Source: a virus
IMG/VR virus record: IMGVR_UViG_3300045988_073749
Length of the DNA: 52,215 bases
Strand: one strand, 5' to 3'
This document shows, in pieces, positions 15,374 through 52,215 of the stretch (position 1 is its first letter; the number at the start of each line of letters is the position of its first letter). The notes below the pieces were generated by a model. The model searched no databases, had not been told where the DNA came from, and saw only the letters and a list, made by a program, of their open reading frames with translations. The position numbers and the translations under genes were made by a program.

Positions 15374-17071
15374 TTAGATGTAGCTTGCGGACAGAGAGTA
15401 GCAGGCGATGCTTTCATACCCTCCGACCTTGGTGATCTGGACGCGGACACCCACCGCAAAGCTATCCGCAGTCTTCGCGGAATTGCTGAAAATGTGCTTG
15501 AGGCCGAGCTGTGCAGTCTCCCAGGTCGGCTCTTCGTCGTTGTAGTTGTTGCAGACCTGGATTGTCACGCCGTCCTCGTGGGCGTTGTACCGCATGGAGA
15601 CAAGGATTTTCTGAGCGGCGGCGCTGGTGTCATCCACCTTCCAGTCAAAGTCGATGATGGAGACGGACCGGGTAAAGGTGATGGTACGGGTGACGCTGTT
15701 CCCGGCGCTGTCCGAGACCTTGATAGTCATGGTGTGCGGCCCAGTGAGGGCGGCGAACTGCGCCGCCGTGAGCGCAAAGGTGTATTGGTGGTTCCGCTCT
15801 GCCGGGGTGATGGTATTAAGGGTCACACCATCCAGGCTCTCTACGATGGTGAGCGTGTCTCCGGCGTCCCCGTCGTTGACCGTGTACTGGAACGAGGGCG
15901 GCGTAGTCACCACGCCGAGCTGCTGATCGCTGCCGCTCACTGTCGGGTCTACATTGTGGGTGACGGTCCGGGTGGGGCTGGTGGTGTATGCGCTATACGC
16001 GGCCTTGCTGTCCTTGGCGCGGACCCGGTAGGCTACCGTGTTCATCGCCGTGGTGATCGTGTCGCTGAACTGCGTCGCAGCCCCGTCGTAGATTTTGGAC
16101 CATGCGCCGCTATTGTACTGCCGCTCAAGCTCGTAGCTTACGGCGTCGCTGTCCGGGTCCACCGACGCCGCCCAGGAGACGGTGAGACCTTTACCGCTCC
16201 GCACGTCCTCCGGCACGGTGATGGACGGGGGCGTGGTGGGGGCGTTATTCCAGATAATCGTGTAGTACCCCTCTCCATCCGGTGTATCAGATACCAAGAT
16301 GTCAGAGGACAGATTCAAAGCCGGGCGCACACCCCAGTTGCCGTAGTACGCGCTGTTGTAGTGGAGGCTCCCGTCCGAGTACACGCAGCGCACGTAGTAC
16401 GCGTTCGACGAATACGGGGAGCGGAGCCACCAGTACCAGAACTGCGACGCGCTCAAGCTGCTATTGGTGTACTCGCTGTTGCTCACGGCCTGAGCTGTGG
16501 GCTTGCACTGGCGGCTTGCGTTGTCGCTGAACATAGCCAGCTTCGTGCCCTCCGCGACGCCGTTCTCCGAACCGAGGCCAACCTCTGCCATGGACAGCAG
16601 AAAAATCTTGTCTTGGACGGTCTCGGACCCGCCGCCGTCCGTGCCGGGCTTTGCGACGGTCAGGGTGGTGGTGAGCAGCGCGGCCAGCATCTCCGCGCCG
16701 AAGCCGGTCAGGAAGCCGGATTGTGCGTCGTACGCGTTGTGGCCGTTCCAGACGTAGGAATTGGACGGGGGCCGGTCATAGCTGTGCTGGGCCTGATACC
16801 AGCCGGTCCCGCTCTTATTGAGCCACTGGCGGATGTTAGCCAGGGAATAGCGGTTGTTGCCGTATCTCTCCCGGTCCAAGATGCCGTCGCTCTCCATAGC
16901 GTCGAAGCAGCAGATTTTGATGATGCTCTCGGCCACAAGGGTTGTGCTGTTGGCCGGATAGCCTGCGTGGTTTTTATCACCGATTTCCCAGCCGATGGGG
17001 ATGCCGTAATACTTAGTCTTTGCGTCCCGCACTTTCGCCTTTACGGGTAGGGCGCTGATTTTCTGCGGCAT
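15374..17071 (-). CDS. DGR target protein 1: DUF6273-like/C-type-lectin-fold domain carrying VR1, followed by Fn3/Ig-like C-terminal domains (receptor-binding candidate)
   Basis: ...FLLSMAEVG...FWYWWLRSPYSSNAYYVRCVYSDGSLHYNSAYYGNWGVRPALNL...; contains VR1. Confidence 0.8.
   Translation of the reverse strand: MPQKISALPVKAKVRDAKTKYYGIPIGWEIGDKNHAGYPANSTTLVAESIIKICCFDAMESDGILDRERYGNNRYSLANIRQWLNKSGTGWYQAQHSYDRPPSNSYVWNGHNAYDAQSGFLTGFGAEMLAALLTTTLTVAKPGTDGGGSETVQDKIFLLSMAEVGLGSENGVAEGTKLAMFSDNASRQCKPTAQAVSNSEYTNSSLSASQFWYWWLRSPYSSNAYYVRCVYSDGSLHYNSAYYGNWGVRPALNLSSDILVSDTPDGEGYYTIIWNNAPTTPPSITVPEDVRSGKGLTVSWAASVDPDSDAVSYELERQYNSGAWSKIYDGAATQFSDTITTAMNTVAYRVRAKDSKAAYSAYTTSPTRTVTHNVDPTVSGSDQQLGVVTTPPSFQYTVNDGDAGDTLTIVESLDGVTLNTITPAERNHQYTFALTAAQFAALTGPHTMTIKVSDSAGNSVTRTITFTRSVSIIDFDWKVDDTSAAAQKILVSMRYNAHEDGVTIQVCNNYNDEEPTWETAQLGLKHIFSNSAKTADSFAVGVRVQITKVGGYESIACYSLSASYI
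16318..16425 (-). repeat. DGR variable region VR1 (108 nt)
   Basis: Gap-free alignment to the TR; 10 mismatches, all at TR adenines. Confidence 0.9.
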
Positions 17072-18119
17072 GGTTTGACTTTACACTCCTTTCAAAGATG
17101 GAGGCGCAAACCGCGTCGTACTTGGTGATGAGTTCCCGGCATTGGCCGTGGGAAGCATGAGACCTCCAGCTCTGGTAGCTCTCTTCAATCTGCTTCCGGG
17201 TCATAGCGCCGTTTTCATACATCACCGCGTATTTCCGCAGCTTGCGCCTCATACGGTCTTTGCTGGAACGCCTAACTTTCCGTATTACCTTTCCGGTGTC
17301 GGTCAGGTATGTGTGGAAGCCCAAAAAGTCCAGGCCGTTCCGCAAGGGGAAGATCTGTGTCTTCTGGTTTAGCTCAAGACCTCTCGGGGTCAAGAACTGC
17401 TCGACTTTCCTCCACGCTTCACGAAGCGCCTCCTTGCTCTCGCAGATGATATAAAAATCATCCATGTAGCGGCCATAGTACCGCATTCGGAGGACTTCTT
17501 TGACGTAGTGGTCGAGTTCATTCAGATACAATAGGGCGTACACCTGGGACGATTGATTGCCTATGGGGATGCCGACATTACCAGGGGTGCTATCTATGAT
17601 AGCGTCGGACAAGGCCCGGCTCCGTGGGTCTGTGAGCAGCTTATTGACATCTCGCTTGAGAATGTCGTGCCGGATGCTGGCGAAGTAGTGCCGGACATCC
17701 GCTTTCAGGACCCAGCCGTCGGCGCTCCCGTGCTTCCGGTAATACTCCCGCATGAAGTCACGGAGGCGGTCGAGGCCGAAGTGGGTTCCCTTTCCGACTT
17801 GGCTCCCGTAGTTATCCAGGATAAAGGGGCGGCTCAGGACGGGGTAAAGGATGTTGTCGCAAAAGGCGTGTTGCACGATTTTGTCCTTGACGCTGTTCGT
17901 CTGGATGAGGCGTCGCTTTGGCTCAAAGACGTAGAACTCATGGTAATTTCCAGGCTTGTAGAGACCGTCCCGCAGCTCAGCTTGCAGGACGGTGATCGCC
18001 TCCAGAGTGTTCAGCTCCACTTTGGCAACGGAGTCTTTCCATCGCTTGCCTTTCCTGGTTGCCCGATACGCCGCATAGAGATTAGCGAAGTCATAAACGA
18101 CTTCAAAATTCTGTTCCAT
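17013..18119 (-). CDS. DGR reverse transcriptase
   Basis: GIPIGNQSSQ, RYYGRYMDDF (YMDD), LGF; ATG 18119; the 3' end overlaps the target-1 start by 59 nt. Confidence 0.9.
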   Translation of the reverse strand: MEQNFEVVYDFANLYAAYRATRKGKRWKDSVAKVELNTLEAITVLQAELRDGLYKPGNYHEFYVFEPKRRLIQTNSVKDKIVQHAFCDNILYPVLSRPFILDNYGSQVGKGTHFGLDRLRDFMREYYRKHGSADGWVLKADVRHYFASIRHDILKRDVNKLLTDPRSRALSDAIIDSTPGNVGIPIGNQSSQVYALLYLNELDHYVKEVLRMRYYGRYMDDFYIICESKEALREAWRKVEQFLTPRGLELNQKTQIFPLRNGLDFLGFHTYLTDTGKVIRKVRRSSKDRMRRKLRKYAVMYENGAMTRKQIEESYQSWRSHASHGQCRELITKYDAVCASIFERSVKSNHAAENQRPTRKGESAGRKD

Positions 18120-18288
18120 AATAGGCACCTTGCGCCGCTGGTAGCGCCGAAGCTCCAATGGGCGAGCCTCAGCGCGTCGGCGCTATGTGTTTATCCCTGC
18201 CCTGTCAGGCCGGGACCGGATACGTCCTCCTTTGATGGTGGGCTTCTGCTTTCTCCCTTTCGGGTTACTCGGTCACGGTATTCCACCG

Positions 18289-18396
18289 AAGCCGGGCGCA
18301 CACCCCTGTTGCCGTTGTACGCGTTGTTGTTGTTGAGGCTCCCGTCCGAGTTCACGTAGCGCACGTTGTTCGCGTTCGACGAATTCGGGGAGCGGA
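18289..18396 (-). repeat. DGR template repeat (TR)
   Basis: AAC-rich pseudo-ORF (SPNSSNANNVRYVNSDGSLNNNNAYNGNRGVRPA) homologous to VR1 and VR2. Confidence 0.9.
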
Positions 18397-39264: not shown

Positions 39265-39960
39265 TTATTTCACGGCAATCCACCCGCAGAAATTGAGGCA
39301 GCGCCAGAACATTTGTACCCGCCGGAAGCCCGCCTCCTTGAGCATGGCTTCATTCCACTCGGGCTCCAGAGGGGAGAGGACGTTCTCAAGGCTCCGGCGC
39401 TTCGCCATGATCTGCTCGTCGGTGTACCCGTTCTCCCGCTTCATCTGGTAGTAGAGGTCCACCATCAGATCGTCCAGGCTCCCGGCCACAACCTTCTCAA
39501 CATAGATCAGAGCGCCGCCATCGACGATGCTCTCGCAGATCTGGCGCAGCATAAAGCGCCGGTATGCCGTCGGCATGAACTGCATGGACAGTACAGAAAG
39601 AACCAGGCTCGCCCGGTCCTCAAGCGGAAGGAACTCCCAGAGGTTTCCCTCCTTCACCGTAACAGCAGGTTCGAAGCAGAAGCGCTCCCGGCAGGCCTGC
39701 GCCATGGCCGGTGCGTTGTCGATCAGCAGGAAGTCATTCTCGTCCCGATGCTTGGTGACGAACGGCTCCACAGCCAGGCCGGTGGAGCACCCGACATCAA
39801 CGATGAGGGTGTCGGGCTTCACGAACCGCTCTCCGGCGTTATAGACCAGGGCTCTCATAGATCGGTAGTCCGGGATGCTGCGCTCCAGCATATTTGCGAA
39901 ACAGGCAGCTACCTCGCCGTTGAACTCCCATGCCCCGGTAGGATTTGTGTTGTCTCTCAT
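39265..39960 (-). CDS. cmoA: CmoA-like carboxy-S-adenosyl-L-methionine (Cx-SAM) synthase
   Basis: End-to-end resemblance to E. coli CmoA as I recall it: WEFNGEVAACFANMLERSIPDYRS, VDVGCSTG, IDNAPAM, ENGYTDEQIMAKRRSLENV, CLNFCGWIAVK. Confidence 0.7.
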   Translation of the reverse strand: MRDNTNPTGAWEFNGEVAACFANMLERSIPDYRSMRALVYNAGERFVKPDTLIVDVGCSTGLAVEPFVTKHRDENDFLLIDNAPAMAQACRERFCFEPAVTVKEGNLWEFLPLEDRASLVLSVLSMQFMPTAYRRFMLRQICESIVDGGALIYVEKVVAGSLDDLMVDLYYQMKRENGYTDEQIMAKRRSLENVLSPLEPEWNEAMLKEAGFRRVQMFWRCLNFCGWIAVK

Positions 39961-41504
39961 GTGCTCTCCTTTCTCGGGATGGAGATGCCGAGGCGATGCT
40001 CAAAGGCCTTGCGGGCCCGCTCGGACAGTCCCATGCGGGTTCCGTCCGGGTATGGAAGCTCGAACTCGAAGTCCAGGGCAGCGCCCAGGGCCTCCGGGTC
40101 CACGATGGGCTCCGACACCTCCATGTACCAGAATTTTTGAATCATTTCCAGCCGGTCAACCTTGCGGAAGCACGGGGCGAAGATTTCCCGCATCTCCTCC
40201 TCGGTGTGCCCCTTCTGGGCCTTCGGGTGGTTTCCGATGTCTCCCAGGATGGTGTTGGGCTCGTAGTCCAGGTCGAAGGTCAAGGTCTTCTCGGCCGCCA
40301 GGAACTTCTTCTTGGTGTTCACGAACTGCGGGGCCTTATTGCTCTGGCACCAGCAGACCGTCCGGCCTCCAGGCGAACACAGGGCGGCGGCGATCACCGC
40401 GATCTGCTTCCGGTCTGCCATGAACGGAACGCTATTGAACACGCTGGAGATGAATACGGACGTGAAGGGCGTCCCGGCCTCCACATCGTCGAGGAACTTC
40501 TCTGCGATCTCCACGCTCTTTGCCTTGTGGATGTTCTCGCCCACAGTCACGAAGTACGGCTCAAAGGCGGCCACATGGATTCCGGCCTTCCGCAGCGTGC
40601 GAGTGTTGTTCAGCTTGCCCGCTCCGAAGTCCACGACGCTGGAGCCATAGTGACGGCGCCACGCCTCCAGGGCCGCGCCCTCCAGCTTGCAGAAGTCCCG
40701 GCCACGGTTCTTCGGGAACACGCCCTTGAAGAAGCCATCTCCCAGGGCTGCGTTTCCTTCGGCGTCGGTCTCTCTTGTGTTCCGCTCCCGCATGAACGAG
40801 TTGTACCGAAGATCGTCCGCGTAGGAGGCGATGTCGAAGTCCATGGACAGCAGGTTCAGCATGGCCGTTGCAAAGGCTTCCTGCTCCTTGGTGACGACCA
40901 CGCACCGGACAACGGGCCGCTTTGCCTCCGCTGCCACCTGGAGGCGGCCGATGCCGTTGATGACGTTCTCGCTTGCGCCGATCACGATGGGCATGGCCGT
41001 ACCGATGCGGCGCTCCAGGCTCTTGGCGAGCTGCCGGGTGTGGGTGTCAAAGCTCCGGTGGTTAGCCTTGGCGAGCTGGACGGTGTCCCGTCGGTGTAGG
41101 CAGAAGACGCACGGGAACGATTCTACGGTGTCCGGCGTGATGTCCGGCAGGCCGTCCACCATGCTTTCCACGTCCATCTCATAGAGGCGGCGCCGGATGA
41201 TGTCGCAGGTGTCTTGCTTCTGGAGGTCGTTGGTCGCCCGGTTGAACAGGACGTTCACGGCCTTCCGCTCTCCCAGGTCCTTCCCGCTGACATACTCGAC
41301 CGGAATCTGGGTGAAGCCCATGCGGGAGGCGACAAGGTGCCTCTGGTGTCCGCTCAAGATTTCCCCGCTGCGGTCCGCGTAGATCGGCAGCAGGAAGCCC
41401 AGCTTTCGGAGGGACAGCTCCGTCAAGGCCAGGCGCTTTTCATCGTTCCGCCGGGGATTGTACTCCGAGGCGTGAACGGATTCGATGGGTACCAGCTCAA
41501 TCAT
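39957..41504 (-). CDS. ParB/Srx N-terminal domain (plus a second degenerate ParB-like segment) fused to a class-I SAM-dependent methyltransferase fold
   Basis: ESVHASEYNPRRND...ILSGHQRHLV; ...VINGIGRLQVA...; SSVVDFGAGK (motif I), HVAAFEP; start ATG 41504, trimmed from track ORF 39957..41804. Confidence 0.6.
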   Translation of the reverse strand: MIELVPIESVHASEYNPRRNDEKRLALTELSLRKLGFLLPIYADRSGEILSGHQRHLVASRMGFTQIPVEYVSGKDLGERKAVNVLFNRATNDLQKQDTCDIIRRRLYEMDVESMVDGLPDITPDTVESFPCVFCLHRRDTVQLAKANHRSFDTHTRQLAKSLERRIGTAMPIVIGASENVINGIGRLQVAAEAKRPVVRCVVVTKEQEAFATAMLNLLSMDFDIASYADDLRYNSFMRERNTRETDAEGNAALGDGFFKGVFPKNRGRDFCKLEGAALEAWRRHYGSSVVDFGAGKLNNTRTLRKAGIHVAAFEPYFVTVGENIHKAKSVEIAEKFLDDVEAGTPFTSVFISSVFNSVPFMADRKQIAVIAAALCSPGGRTVCWCQSNKAPQFVNTKKKFLAAEKTLTFDLDYEPNTILGDIGNHPKAQKGHTEEEMREIFAPCFRKVDRLEMIQKFWYMEVSEPIVDPEALGAALDFEFELPYPDGTRMGLSERARKAFEHRLGISIPRKEST

Positions 41505-43367: not shown

Positions 43368-43396
43368 ATTATACCACTTTTCGGAATCCTTGTCAC
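43368..43396 (-). promoter_or_regulatory. Sigma70-type promoter with extended -10
   Basis: On the minus strand: GTGACA, a 17-nt spacer ending in TGG, then TATAAT; ~35 nt upstream of ATG 43332. Confidence 0.55.
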
Positions 43397-44154: not shown

Positions 44155-44772
44155 TTACTCAACCTCGTTTCCCCATGTGTCCCATCCAGGTGTCGTGCAT
44201 CTCGCAAATAATTCTATCATTTTCACGTCTCCGGCAAGTTCTGCTATCCTGTCCCTTACCTCCGCCGGTTTTTCGCTATGCCGCCCTATCGGCGCATCAA
44301 TCACGCTATGAACGGACTTCGACACTCTTTTCGGCTTGCCCTTTACTCCGAGAAGGCACACCTCCGGGTTTGCCCTTGTCCAGTTTCCGAGGCCCCAAAA
44401 CCAGCCTGGGGACTTTTTGTTTCTCTTTACCCACACAAACGCAGCCGTTTTGTACTCAAATCCCCATCGCTTTATTGTCTCAATCGCTATCTCCAGATTT
44501 GGAAATGTCGCCCACATGAAAAGAAGGCAATCGTCTTCCGCTATGTCCTGGACCGGAAGGTTGTAAATGTCTTGAGGCGACATCGTTTGGTAATGCCTTG
44601 TGACATTTCTCTTCTTCCCGCCTGCCGAGTATGACCATGGAGGGTCCGCATAGATGACGGAATACTTCTTATCTGGGAGATTTACTTCCTTTTTTCTGCG
44701 AAGGCTTTCTGCCTCTCCCAAAGATACGGCGCAGGATTCCTTTCTTTTCGACTTCGTTTTGCTCACCCCCAT
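44155..44772 (-). CDS. MT-A70-family N6-adenine DNA methyltransferase
   Basis: VIYADPPW motif; ...LFMWAT...; ...SEKP... Confidence 0.8.
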   Translation of the reverse strand: MGVSKTKSKRKESCAVSLGEAESLRRKKEVNLPDKKYSVIYADPPWSYSAGGKKRNVTRHYQTMSPQDIYNLPVQDIAEDDCLLFMWATFPNLEIAIETIKRWGFEYKTAAFVWVKRNKKSPGWFWGLGNWTRANPEVCLLGVKGKPKRVSKSVHSVIDAPIGRHSEKPAEVRDRIAELAGDVKMIELFARCTTPGWDTWGNEVE

Positions 44773-46700: not shown

Positions 46701-47519
46701 TTACTTGACCTCCGGCCACACCATGCCGTCCGGGTGGTCTCTGATGAGATCGTCGCCCCAGATCGGCGCCAGGCTGTCCTTCATAAAGACGGCGGCATGG
46801 GTCAGGCCAGCGGCCTCCACGATGTTCTCTACCCACTCCCGCTTCGGCTGGTGCTTCTTGCTACCGGGCCCGGTCATAGCCCCTACGATAACCCAACGGA
46901 CGCCTCCGAAGCTCCCGAGACCGGCCTCCAGGTTCTCCATGAGCGGTTCAATGCTCAAGAAGGTATTGAAGTCCACGCTGGTCGCAAAGAGGGGAGCTCC
47001 CTTCCCGGTCACGCTGGTCCCGTACCAGAAGTTATCCCGCTTCGGCAGCTTCCCGGCGTTCGCCAGATCGCAATACCGCTGTGGGTTCTTGGTGAGGAAC
47101 AGGTAGGTGTGCTGCGGTGCCTTGTCGCAGGCATCGAAGACATCCTGAATCCAGATGTCCGGCACCCACTCCCCGAACAGATCGCCCATGCTGGAGACGA
47201 ACACCCGGGACGGGATAGCCCGCTTGGCCGGATAGTCCAGTGTGTAGGTGTGGAAGGTGGGCGCGAATCCCTTCGGGTACGGCGTGGTCCTCGCATAATT
47301 CTGGACGTCGTCCACCGCGTTGCACGGTGAGTTACTGACGTAGATGCCGGACCCCTTGGGAAGATACTCCATAGGCTCCGGCTCCGGCCGCTCACAGGGC
47401 TGCGGCTTGAACCGGTCGATAAATCGCCGGGCGTAACAGTAGGGGCAGCCATGCAGGCAGCCGGTCACCGGGTTCCAGGTGTGGGTACACCATTCGATTT
47501 TGCTTTTGTGCAGGTTCAT
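46701..47519 (-). CDS. Phage Gp37/Gp68 family (DUF5131) protein
   Basis: KIEWCTHTWNPVTGCLHGCPYCYA N-terminus with a CxxxCxxC motif. Confidence 0.7.
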   Translation of the reverse strand: MNLHKSKIEWCTHTWNPVTGCLHGCPYCYARRFIDRFKPQPCERPEPEPMEYLPKGSGIYVSNSPCNAVDDVQNYARTTPYPKGFAPTFHTYTLDYPAKRAIPSRVFVSSMGDLFGEWVPDIWIQDVFDACDKAPQHTYLFLTKNPQRYCDLANAGKLPKRDNFWYGTSVTGKGAPLFATSVDFNTFLSIEPLMENLEAGLGSFGGVRWVIVGAMTGPGSKKHQPKREWVENIVEAAGLTHAAVFMKDSLAPIWGDDLIRDHPDGMVWPEVK

Positions 47520-48026: not shown

Positions 48027-48908
48027 TTATCCCTCCAGAAGGCTTTCCAGGTTGTCCAGTCTCTTGCACTCCATCTCGCTGTTGTCCCCGAAGATGACGT
48101 GGAGCTGGTTGAGCATGATCTCAACGTCGGCCCGCTCCATGGAGATGTTGTCGCGGATGGCCTGCTCATCCCCGATACCGTAGTCCTCGCAGAACACCAG
48201 CTTCAAGATGGCCTGGGACAGCTCGCTCATCTCCTCAATCGCCTTGAGGGCCTGGGCTCTCTTGCCCCACTTGGCAACGGCCTTCTCATAGAGTGCCATC
48301 TCGCGCTGCTCCGGGGTCATCTCCTCCGGCTCCTCCGCCTGGTCTTCCTGGTCATCGACAGATACCAAGATGTCAGATTTCAGGGTCAAAGCCGGGCGCA
48401 CACCCCCGTCGCCGACGTACGCGAGGTCGTAGTCGAGGCTCCCGTCCGAGTACACGAAGCGCACGAAAGAGGTGCCGGAGCTGGCGGGCGTACCATCGGG
48501 GGTAATGAGCCAGCGCCAGTGTTCCGGCGCAGGGTGAAGGTCTCTGGTCTCCCGGTATTCATCCGCCGTCAGCATGGTCACCTTATCGAGGCAAGCCCCG
48601 TAGTCGTTGAGGCCATCATCGGCGGTCAGATCGCGGTAGGTGGGGACGATGAACTCCAGGATGCCGGGGCGTTCCTTCTCCAGGGCGTCCAGGAAGTCAC
48701 CGTTCAGCCGCTCCCGCAGGCTGGCGTTATTCCAGTTGTTGTTGCCGTTCTCGTCGAAGGGTGCCTGGAAGATGTCTTCCGCAGCCTCGCAGAAATAGTT
48801 CTGCACGGCTCCAGAGTGGGCGGGCTCAAGCTCCTTGAGCACCTTCCAGTTGATACCGGCCAGGGCGAAGGTGTCGCCACGGCGCAGCGCGTTCAGTTTG
48901 ACTTCCAT
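48027..48908 (-). CDS. DGR target protein 2: DUF6273-like/CLec-fold domain with VR2, an acidic linker, and a MazG-like all-alpha NTP-pyrophosphohydrolase-type C-terminal domain
   Basis: ATG 48908 after AGGAGG; ...WRWLITPDG...FVRFVYSDGSLDYDLAYVGDGGVRPALTL...; C-terminal KAIEEMSELSQA... and ...MERADVEIMLNQL. Confidence 0.7.
   Translation of the reverse strand: MEVKLNALRRGDTFALAGINWKVLKELEPAHSGAVQNYFCEAAEDIFQAPFDENGNNNWNNASLRERLNGDFLDALEKERPGILEFIVPTYRDLTADDGLNDYGACLDKVTMLTADEYRETRDLHPAPEHWRWLITPDGTPASSGTSFVRFVYSDGSLDYDLAYVGDGGVRPALTLKSDILVSVDDQEDQAEEPEEMTPEQREMALYEKAVAKWGKRAQALKAIEEMSELSQAILKLVFCEDYGIGDEQAIRDNISMERADVEIMLNQLHVIFGDNSEMECKRLDNLESLLEG
48389..48467 (-). repeat. DGR variable region VR2 (79 nt of TR homology)
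   Basis: 13 mismatches to the TR, all at TR adenines; homology ends after TR position 79. Confidence 0.85.
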
Positions 48909-48924
48909 ATTGATTTCCTCCTGT

Positions 48925-49137
48925 TTATTTATTGGGGCGTTTCCCCCGGGGCAGCTTCTTATTGGCCGACGTTTTCGCGGTAGGAAGGACCTGGCCGCAG
49001 CGGCTCGGGTGGTTGAGGCACGGGTTTTTGCAGGTCCCGTTATTCTCTGGGTTGTACCCGCAGTCAGCGCAGCAGACGTTCCCATGCCTTCGGTCGCAGT
49101 TGAAGATCGTGCATCCTCTCGGGTATGATCTGCTCAT
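48925..49137 (-). CDS. Cys-rich small protein (70 aa)
   Basis: CTIFNCDRRHGNVCCADCGYNPENNGTCKNPCLNHPSRCG. Confidence 0.45.
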   Translation of the reverse strand: MSRSYPRGCTIFNCDRRHGNVCCADCGYNPENNGTCKNPCLNHPSRCGQVLPTAKTSANKKLPRGKRPNK

Positions 49138-51142: not shown

Positions 51143-52215
51143 TTATTCCATCGTGACTGTGCTCCCGTCCTCTCCGCCGGTTACCACGATGTTCTGCACA
51201 AACCGGGCCTTCATGGTCGGGTCGTGCGAGATAGCAAGGATTCTCATATTGGGGTTTCTGGAGGCCATGGCGGCCAGGGCGTCGGCGTAGGCCTCGGTTC
51301 CGTCGGCGTCCAGGAAGGGGGGCTCGTCGATGAACAGCATCCCAAGCTGCACCCCCGCCCGGCGAGCTTTCACGTCAGCCAGGCCCAGGGTGACGGCCAG
51401 CGCGATCTTGACCTTCTCGCCTCCACTGTGGGAGAGGTAGGGTCTGTTGCCTCCTGTGATGGTGTTAATCCACACCTCCAGGCTGTTCACGATCTGCTTC
51501 GTGGACTTCTGCTCCCGCTCGGTTCGGATGTCCACCGCCATACGGCCGCCGGTCATGGCTGCCAGAATTTCATTGGACCGGCGCATGATCTCCGGCACGA
51601 CGCCGCGCACGATCATGTACTGGATGCCGTCCAGGCCAAATGCCTGGGCCAGGGTGGTGTAGTCGCTCAAGACCACGCCGACGGCTTCCGCCTCCCGGCG
51701 GAGCTCCGAGGACTTGGTCTCCGCCTCTGCGATGTCCTCCAGCTTTGCCTTGAGCTGTCCCCGGCGGGTTGCTAGGTCGGTGAGGGACCGTCGCTGCGCT
51801 TCGATGTTGGCGCGGATGCGGTCTGCCACGTTCCCACCTCCCGGCACGCGGGCGGCGATCTCGTCGGCCTCTCGAAGTGCCTGCTCGGACTTGCCGCGCA
51901 GCTCCTCCACTTCCGCCTTGAGCTTCCTGATCTGCGGCTCCAGGGCCTCGGCCTTCGCTGCGGCCGCCTGACACTCCGCCAGAGTATCAGCCAAAACGGA
52001 AAAGGCCTTCACGTCTCCCTCGGCCTCCTGGTAGGCGGTAACGGCCTGGGCGAGCTTCACGCGCTCAGCGTCGATCTCGTCGATGCGGGCCGCCGCTGCA
52101 TCGAAGGTCCGTTTCACTTCCAGGACGGACGCCTCGAGTTTCTCCAGGGTAGCTTCCGCAACCGCGATGTCCGCCTCCTTCGAGGCGATGGAACGGAGGC
52201 GCCGCTCCTTGTACT
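51143..52215 (-). CDS. C-terminal part of the SbcD-SbcC fusion ORF (continues from 1..2784 through the circular junction)
   Basis: Coiled coil, then ...LSHSGGEKV (ABC signature) and GMLFIDEPPFLD (Walker B/D-loop); same frame as 2784..1 once the 52,138-nt period is applied. Confidence 0.85.
   Translation of the reverse strand, partial: YKERRLRSIASKEADIAVAEATLEKLEASVLEVKRTFDAAAARIDEIDAERVKLAQAVTAYQEAEGDVKAFSVLADTLAECQAAAAKAEALEPQIRKLKAEVEELRGKSEQALREADEIAARVPGGGNVADRIRANIEAQRRSLTDLATRRGQLKAKLEDIAEAETKSSELRREAEAVGVVLSDYTTLAQAFGLDGIQYMIVRGVVPEIMRRSNEILAAMTGGRMAVDIRTEREQKSTKQIVNSLEVWINTITGGNRPYLSHSGGEKVKIALAVTLGLADVKARRAGVQLGMLFIDEPPFLDADGTEAYADALAAMASRNPNMRILAISHDPTMKARFVQNIVVTGGEDGSTVTME
52139..52215. 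repeat. Second copy of the 77-nt closure overlap
   Basis: Identical to 1..77. Confidence 0.95.

Follow-up and report, generated by a model that had tools for sequence, protein, structure and literature searches.

The canonical role of CmoA is tRNA modification, in the CmoA/CmoB pathway that leads to uridine-5-oxyacetic acid at position 34 (cmo5U34) by way of carboxy-S-adenosylmethionine (Cx-SAM). In CmoB the carboxylate of Cx-SAM is recognised by Lys91, Tyr200 and Arg315 (PMC4482062), and Arg199 of CmoA forms a salt bridge to the carboxymethyl carboxylate of Cx-SAM (PMC3663124). Natural Cx-SAM-dependent modification of DNA was shown only in late 2025, and only via homologues of C5-cytosine methyltransferases. 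Here, the CmoA of Synechococcus phage S-B43 makes Cx-SAM, the C5-cytosine methyltransferase homologue CmoX (SPPC motif, Arg350) makes 5-carboxymethylcytosine (5cxmC), and CmoY ligates glycine to the carboxymethyl group to yield 5-glycylcarboxymethylcytosine (5gcxmC) (Yang et al., Nat Commun, December 2025; PMC12783734). That report supersedes a first-pass annotation of the DNA described below, which had stated that no natural DNA carboxymethylation system was known. Its authors encountered ParBc proteins in many CmoA/CmoX contigs, and they report that no candidate for carboxymethylating N6 of adenine or N4 of cytosine turned up in association with phage CmoA (PMC12783734). Since their survey was seeded with CmoX, it does not extend to loci of the phrog_5475 type. 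One such locus, a five-gene module in which a CmoA homologue adjoins a fusion of ParB-type and methyltransferase-fold domains, lies in the viral record IMGVR_UViG_3300045988_073749 (IMG/VR), a stretch of 52,215 nucleotides that is referred to as the window.

The locus probably represents another form of DNA carboxymethylation in phages, different from that described in 2025. Its new element is the transferase, which is not CmoX, not CmoB and not a canonical DNA amino-methyltransferase. The preferred reading, to which a probability of about 0.5 is assigned, is that CmoA and the ParB-tethered fusion carboxymethylate phage DNA after replication as an anti-restriction module. The five genes at the head of the late (packaging) operon would be expressed as genomes are packaged, and the CmoA homologue would convert S-adenosylmethionine (SAM, AdoMet) and prephenate into Cx-SAM. 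The translationally coupled fusion would then place the carboxymethyl group of Cx-SAM on phage DNA after replication, loaded or tethered there by its ParB-type domains and two stand-alone ParB paralogues, with a protein of the haloacid dehalogenase (HAD) fold as an additional component. The expected outcome would be an anti-restriction mark chemically unlike the 5-carboxymethylcytosine of CmoX. It is also possible, with the odds somewhat against it, that the fusion founds a second class of natural DNA carboxymethyltransferases, one that does without CmoX and marks a position other than cytosine C5. Under this more specific proposal the ParB domains, of the nucleoside triphosphate (NTP)-binding type, would load onto DNA or slide along it, spreading the mark over the genome, and the carboxymethyl group might be processed further with the HAD-like protein.

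There is strong support for a functional link of the fusion to CmoA: their genes overlap, are found together at nearly every locus, and show parallel divergence in very distant phages. Co-occurrence of phage cmoA with the ParB-methyltransferase gene had been suggested as a check at first pass, and it was found at nearly every locus. Among viral loci with a genuine full-length fusion homologue and downstream DNA, 67 of 68 have a CmoA-like gene within ~1.2 kb of the fusion; the lone exception (L066) begins at a contig end, and locus L064 stops at a contig edge. Nearly all viral loci also have the HAD-like gene. In bacterial genomes, counted once per species, the CmoA-like gene is present in 69 of the 71 prophage loci with at least 2 kb of downstream sequence and the HAD-like gene in 64 of 71; the two loci that lack the CmoA-like gene, L105 and L111, are truncated remnants that end right past the HAD-like gene. 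The cultured phages with a full-length fusion all have a CmoA-like gene as well (14/14): Gordonia phage Evaa (gp2), Aeromonas phage HJ05 (gp2) and 12 records of the Pseudomonas SM1/PaMx31 group, including UF_RH6. Their gene order is the fusion, a CmoA-like gene for ~240 residues and then the terminase.

The identities of the fusion, CmoA, HAD and ParB1 proteins to their counterparts in the window drop together (Spearman rho 0.91-0.94, with 0.94 for ParB1 and the fusion), a coefficient that is descriptive and not a probability because the loci are related to one another. The fusion and CmoA have co-diverged over an identity range of 23-98% and many phyla. The large terminase gene, terL, is mosaic and has been swapped independently; a fusion of 85% identity is found with a terL of 98%, and one of 80% with a terL of 52%. 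When the methyltransferase domain alone was searched against 1.84 billion representative proteins, 313 were recovered at E <= 1e-3; nearly all complete matches are 500-540 residues long with the domain at about residues 225-510, and the domain seems to exist only in the ParB-fused architecture. The fusion family comprises ~200-300 clusters at 50% identity. Two single-member clusters of metagenomic relatives (P0098 and P0120) join fusion residues 1 to ~388 (to CWCQS) to an internal part of CmoA. These were considered and rejected as Rosetta-stone evidence, as half of each Rossmann domain is lost at the junction; they either arose by deletion or are artefacts of assembly.

The phylogenetic range of the module is wide. 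Prophage copies of 85% identity occur in Flavonifractor and Pseudoflavonifractor, which are probably the host group of the phage in the window. Copies are also found in other Oscillospiraceae, Lachnospiraceae, Akkermansia and other Verrucomicrobiota, Alphaproteobacteria, Leptolyngbya (Cyanobacteria), Bacteroidota, Phycisphaerae, Anaerolineae (Chloroflexi), Vibrio, Photobacterium and Desulfovibrionaceae. Many of these hosts are Gram-positive or come from further lineages in which cmo5U synthesis is not known, and this would account for a phage bringing its own synthase. A megablast search of the whole region against cultured phages returned no relative at the nucleotide level.

The genes of the module region all lie on the minus strand (Table 1), and a promoter-like site directly precedes the HAD-like gene, heading both the module and the late operon. 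The layout given by the first-pass annotation agrees with what was found. The stop codon of the fusion gene overlaps the cmoA-like ATG (ATGA at 39960-39957), with a Shine-Dalgarno sequence (aaggagag) just before that ATG and inside the fusion gene; the pair sits at the head of the late operon, with terS, terL and the portal gene downstream; and two ParB-N proteins and a HAD-like protein precede it. The HAD-like gene had been registered there as a neighbour, and its conserved membership of the module had been missed. With this protein among its members, the module amounts to more than a CmoA with a methyltransferase.

Table 1. Coordinates of the module, of the domains of the fusion and of other features of the window.
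Feature	Position	Strand	Remarks
CmoA-like carboxy-SAM synthase (putative), 231 aa	39265..39960	-	
ParB-N / ParB-like / class-I methyltransferase-fold fusion, 515 aa	39957..41504	-	candidate Cx-SAM-dependent transferase
Fusion domain 1, ParB N-terminal (NTP-binding type)	41220..41504	-	residues 1-95
Fusion domain 2, degenerate ParB-like	40845..41099	-	residues ~136-220
Fusion domain 3, Rossmann class-I methyltransferase fold	39960..40679	-	residues ~276-515
Stand-alone ParB-N protein 2, 226 aa	41497..42177	-	acidic tract
Stand-alone ParB-N protein 1, 202 aa	42167..42775	-	
Capless HAD-fold protein, 161 aa	42847..43332	-	
Promoter-like site	43368..43396	-	GTGACA-17-TATAAT with upstream TG, 11/12 matches; consensus match only
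MT-A70 (DPPW) DNA adenine methyltransferase	44155-44772	-	third-position GC 0.56 vs ~0.8 in neighbours
Diversity-generating retroelement (DGR)	15374-18396	-	reverse transcriptase, template repeat and variable repeat
DGR reverse transcriptase	17013-18158	-	RVT_1, E 5.6e-20
DGR template repeat	18289-18396	-	
DGR variable repeat	16318-16425	-	within DUF6273/Big_9 target gene 15374-17071

The CmoA homologue resembles CmoA over its whole length, as had been noted from the sequence, and the strings quoted in support are all present. It matches NCBIfam TIGR00740 (E 2.7e-45, model positions 11-239 of 239) and PRK15451 (124.4 bits; cut-off 285), as well as phrog_4752, annotated 'tRNA methyltransferase' (E 6e-78), and its residues 9-231 match the E. 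coli CmoA structure 4GEK (E 3.2e-36). Its best matches are bona fide CmoA proteins, by a wide margin. The window protein was aligned with E. coli CmoA (EcCmoA), the S-B43 protein (SpCmoA), the CmoA of Erwinia phage Y3 and partners from other lineages; it is 33% identical to EcCmoA, 45% to the Y3 protein and 28.6% to SpCmoA. Tyr39, Asp62, Gly64, Ser66, Asp89, Lys198 and Arg199 are kept, together with the LENV motif, and two SAM contacts are substituted (Asp117 by Asn and Asn132 by Val). The more divergent SpCmoA, 30% identical to EcCmoA, is a proven Cx-SAM synthase that feeds DNA modification (PMC12783734), and its residue 132 is Leu, so that Asn132 is substituted in an active enzyme as well. 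The window homologue is therefore likely, judging from its sequence, to make Cx-SAM, because most of the key residues are kept and it is slightly closer to EcCmoA than the verified SpCmoA is. The closest CmoA of a cultured phage, that of Erwinia phage vB_EamM_Y3 (L080, 5989-7657 and 11956-12756), is of a type that, in jumbo phages of Erwinia, Dickeya and Yersinia, has a gene resembling Asn synthase (CmoY-like) as its neighbour; of the DNA methyltransferases annotated there, the nearest is Dam-like (FDPPY) and not a C5 enzyme.

The fusion belongs to phrog_5475 (E 3e-179), a family annotated as of unknown function. Its open reading frame (ORF) is open up to 41804, and the start assigned at 41504 is taken to be correct because all homologues begin at MI(E/K)LVPI. 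The first-pass annotation had recognised in it an N-terminal ParB domain with SGHQR, a second degenerate ParB-like segment and, at the C-terminus, the Rossmann fold of a methyltransferase (VVDFGAGK, AAFEP), and had proposed profile searches and structure prediction for both proteins. Profile searches match the CmoA homologue to its family over the full length, at scores under the curated cut-offs, and for the fusion the profile searches and a structure model yield the same domains. In its AlphaFold model (pLDDT 88.8, pTM 0.81, built on 37 homologues) a helical linker connects the ParB-N domain to the second ParB-like domain, and the C-terminal part is a Rossmann methyltransferase fold in which both of the quoted motifs are seen. 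The ParB-N domain matches Pfam ParB_N weakly (PF02195; residues 2-69, E 4e-4, below the cut-off), and also PHROG ParB families to about E 1e-23 (phrog_498, E 5.7e-24), and the Noc/ParB structures 7NG0 and 7BNK. The second ParB-like domain, with NGIGR, is folded in the model and has a weak phrog_12305 match (residues 156-228), and residues 284-381 weakly match Pfam Methyltransf_23.

Conservation was judged across 14 divergent lineages. Invariant are the ParB box motifs NPR, GHQR and FNRxTN, N183-G184-x-x-R187 in the second domain, and, in the methyltransferase domain, DFGAG (motif I), E315-P316 (the ribose-binding acid), N357-S-x-P-F361 at the post-strand-4 position, D364-R365, K428-x-Q-K431 and R504. 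By analogy with CmoB Lys91 and CmoX Arg350, the invariant Lys and Arg residues could serve as binders of the Cx-SAM carboxylate. Foldseek searches of the PDB with the model returned generic class-I small-molecule and RNA methyltransferases (3D2L, 3H2B, GSMT, CcbJ and METTL6; E ~1e-5), with no DNA methyltransferase, no C5-methyltransferase, and no CmoB among the top 50 fold matches. No homology to CmoB was seen in the Pfam and NCBIfam matches of the fusion or in its PDB sequence-profile matches; single-sequence and profile searches of the PDB matched only the ParB/Noc N-terminal part and nothing for the methyltransferase domain. A fold search of BFVD gave generic class-I methyltransferases and ParB proteins, and no substrate clue. 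A duplicated CmoA was considered as the origin of the methyltransferase domain and discarded, as hhalign of the two families finds no relationship beyond motif I. The modelled fold would thus mark the fusion as an AdoMet-type transferase, without indicating the atom that is modified.

The remaining members of the module are two stand-alone ParB proteins and the HAD-fold protein. ParB-N protein 1 matches phrog_620 (E 1.5e-46) and NCBIfam Noc (E 2.8e-9); ParB-N protein 2, conserved in related loci, matches phrog_620 (E 4e-35), the N-terminal part of phrog_498 and Pfam ParB_N. A small C-terminal domain is common to both, and in protein 2 it is preceded by an almost pure Asp/Glu run of ~35 residues (DADDDAEDLDDLEDEDQEEPEDDEPEDEDAPEE) that follows the ParB-N domain. 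The HAD-fold protein is assigned to phrog_32036 (annotated as of unknown function; E 5.7e-88), and its model (pLDDT 90.9) is best matched by the 3′-phosphatase domain of T4 Pnk (2IA5, E 4e-5) and by Pnkp1 (4XRU, TM 0.63), both of them capless HADs with macromolecular substrates. Its motif I reads LLDLNYTL; at position +2 from the nucleophile Asp, all lineages have Asn, His or Gln and none has Asp. Its motif IV has E-S-N instead of D-D, and phosphatase chemistry is therefore doubtful. The D-x-N and E-S-N residues hint at a haloacid-dehalogenase-type enzyme acting on a carboxymethyl electrophile, a candidate role that was set aside because the fold search favours capless HADs of the polynucleotide-phosphatase type.

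The window has an exact 77-bp terminal overlap (positions 1-77 equal 52139-52215), and a fused Mre11/Rad50 (SbcCD-like) gene spans the junction, running from 2886 down to 1 and resuming from 52215. These features establish the window as a complete circular assembly (~52.1 kb), and with the whole genome in hand gene absences can be stated. The source is a temperate phage, a gut prophage of ~52.1 kb, with genes for an integrase, an amidase with an SH3 domain and RecU. The complete genome contains no tRNA genes, no CmoB-like gene, and no genes for a DNA polymerase or nucleotide kinases; a pre-replicative modification at the nucleotide level is accordingly judged unlikely for this temperate phage. 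With the S-B43 proteins SpCmoA, SpCmoX and SpCmoY as queries, only SpCmoA has a counterpart in the window. SpCmoX gave no tblastn match in the genome or in the viral loci, PF00145 had no match among the early and module genes scanned, and no long ORF of the window has a C5 motif. Likewise, tblastn with SpCmoY and with the Asn-synthase-like protein of Y3 found no match in the window or in ~150 related loci. Three Alphaproteobacteria prophages (L108, L109 and L113) are the only loci with a C5-methyltransferase-like ORF within 5 kb of the module (23-25% identity to SpCmoX, E ~1e-11). As the fusion is not a C5-cytosine methyltransferase, a covalent Cys-C6 mechanism is impossible for it, and its product would differ from 5-carboxymethylcytosine.

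The proposal that the methyltransferase-fold protein uses Cx-SAM on phage DNA was already made at first pass. Of its two parts, the coupling to CmoA is upheld by gene overlap, co-occurrence and co-divergence; DNA as the target is plausible, and we infer it by analogy, from a ParB-N type that is common to phage DNA methyltransferase fusions, from the ParBc proteins found alongside published CmoA/CmoX systems and from the published precedent. The activity of CmoA, the evasion of host defences and the modified atom are presumed parts of the proposed module.

Several points weigh against DNA carboxymethylation by the fusion. Its choice of Cx-SAM over SAM is read from the linkage to CmoA, and co-occurrence indicates a functional link and not a substrate. 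The motif IV (D/N/S)PP(Y/F/W) of N6-adenine and N4-cytosine DNA methyltransferases is absent from the fusion, a motif scan having confirmed the earlier remark that it has no DPPY/NPPY, and its nearest solved folds are small-molecule and RNA methyltransferases rather than DNA methyltransferases. The CmoA homologue scores 154.9 bits, under the TIGR00740 equivalog cut-off of 193.3, and the Arg199 position is Ala, Asn or Thr in the partners from Evaa, HJ05 and SM1, a loss softened by the Glu at position 199 of the verified SpCmoA. The phage already carries an ordinary DNA methyltransferase of the MT-A70 type, and the conserved HAD-fold protein is given no role by the proposed model.

Among the alternatives, the one that survives best, while still unlikely, is that Cx-SAM is indeed used and the acceptor is not DNA, being instead host tRNA or rRNA, a packaging or ParB protein, or a nucleotide or small molecule bound by the ParB/Srx domain. 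The canonical role of CmoA in tRNA modification fits this alternative, as do the proximity of the methyltransferase fold to GSMT, CcbJ and METTL6 (class-I enzymes acting on small molecules or RNA), the NTP-binding fold of ParB-N with all three box motifs retained, and the resemblance of the HAD partner to polynucleotide and nucleotide phosphatases. It is disfavoured by the lack of CmoB similarity in the fusion and of tRNA genes in the genome, and by the missing DNA polymerase and nucleotide kinases that a pre-replicative route would need. Moreover, DNA methyltransferases are the characteristic fusion partners of this ParB-N type, and in the published phage system CmoA serves to modify DNA (PMC12783734).

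It is rather improbable that the two proteins have separate functions, the fusion being a plain SAM-dependent DNA methyltransferase and CmoA serving some other end, such as draining SAM so as to blunt host defences that depend on it, or reprogramming host tRNA via host enzymes. Phages commonly encode ParB-methyltransferase fusions that work with plain SAM, and SAM depletion has been raised as a possible role of phage CmoA (PMC12783734). Independent genes would nonetheless be expected to separate frequently in mosaic phage genomes, as terL shows, whereas the fusion and CmoA exhibit near-obligate linkage, gene overlap and co-divergence over 23-98% identity in many phyla, and the methyltransferase domain is never found outside loci of the module type. 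Least probable is that the CmoA-like protein makes another SAM derivative or is itself a methyltransferase, so that a different group is installed: the sub-cut-off score, the changes at Asp117 and Asn132, the loss of Arg199 in several module lineages and the presence of other SAM-dependent enzymes with this fold among the PDB matches (9FCE and others) would suit it, but the window protein retains Lys198-Arg199 and LENV, Asn132 is also substituted in verified SpCmoA, and bona fide CmoA proteins lead the matches by a wide margin.

Elsewhere in the window, the MT-A70 enzyme (DPPW) is the sole other methyltransferase of the complete genome besides the module. The region of 44-46 kb has the lowest GC content (0.567) and the strongest negative GC skew (-0.17) of the window, and the MT-A70 gene looks like a recently acquired moron. 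A diversity-generating retroelement is also present, in which the template base of the 108-nt repeat is A at 10/10 mismatches; a further DUF6273 protein is encoded at 48027-49085. A DUF5131 (phage Gp37/Gp68 family) protein is found among the early genes (46701-47519, minus strand, E 1e-39).

The locus supplies a class of transferase absent from the published survey, one that is compact, architecture-specific, CmoA-linked and distributed over many phyla, including abundant human-gut taxa. If DNA is modified, this would amount to a new base chemistry, a carboxyl handle for biotechnology and a new form of restriction evasion for temperate phages. Literature searches turned up no work on the fusion and none on DNA modification in SM1/PaMx31. 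The question of DNA modification is directly testable, since the module is present in cultured phages of three groups (Pseudomonas SM1/PaMx31/UF_RH6, Gordonia Evaa and Aeromonas HJ05).

Compared with the systems described so far, the module is closest in outline to CmoA-CmoX-CmoY, with which it has in common a phage CmoA beside a methyltransferase-fold gene, ParB-domain proteins nearby, and a presumed role in Cx-SAM-based anti-restriction modification of DNA. That system employs a C5-methyltransferase and an Asn-synthetase-like ligase, whereas the complete genome of the window has neither, and CmoA is instead paired with an uncharacterised family that fuses two ParB-type domains to a class-I methyltransferase fold, accompanied by a HAD-fold protein. 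With the CmoA/CmoB tRNA cmo5U34 pathway the module shares most of the cofactor contacts of CmoA, Arg199 included, and a class-I Rossmann transferase as partner. This partner has no sequence similarity or top-ranking structural similarity to CmoB and carries two ParB-type domains; the module belongs to the late operon of a phage, and its hosts span many phyla. The HAD-like partner resembles the T4 Pnk 3′-phosphatase and Pnkp1 in its capless Rossmannoid fold and the nucleophile Asp of motif I, yet these enzymes have a general acid/base Asp at the +2 position where the module family has Asn, His or Gln. Finally, the ParB-N-fused phage DNA methyltransferases (phrog_498; PF02195 with the N6/N4 domain PF01555) possess a homologous N-terminal ParB domain and a similar position just upstream of the terminase genes; their catalytic domain is PF01555, whereas that of the fusion is not, lacks DPPY, is specific to its family and is almost always linked to CmoA.

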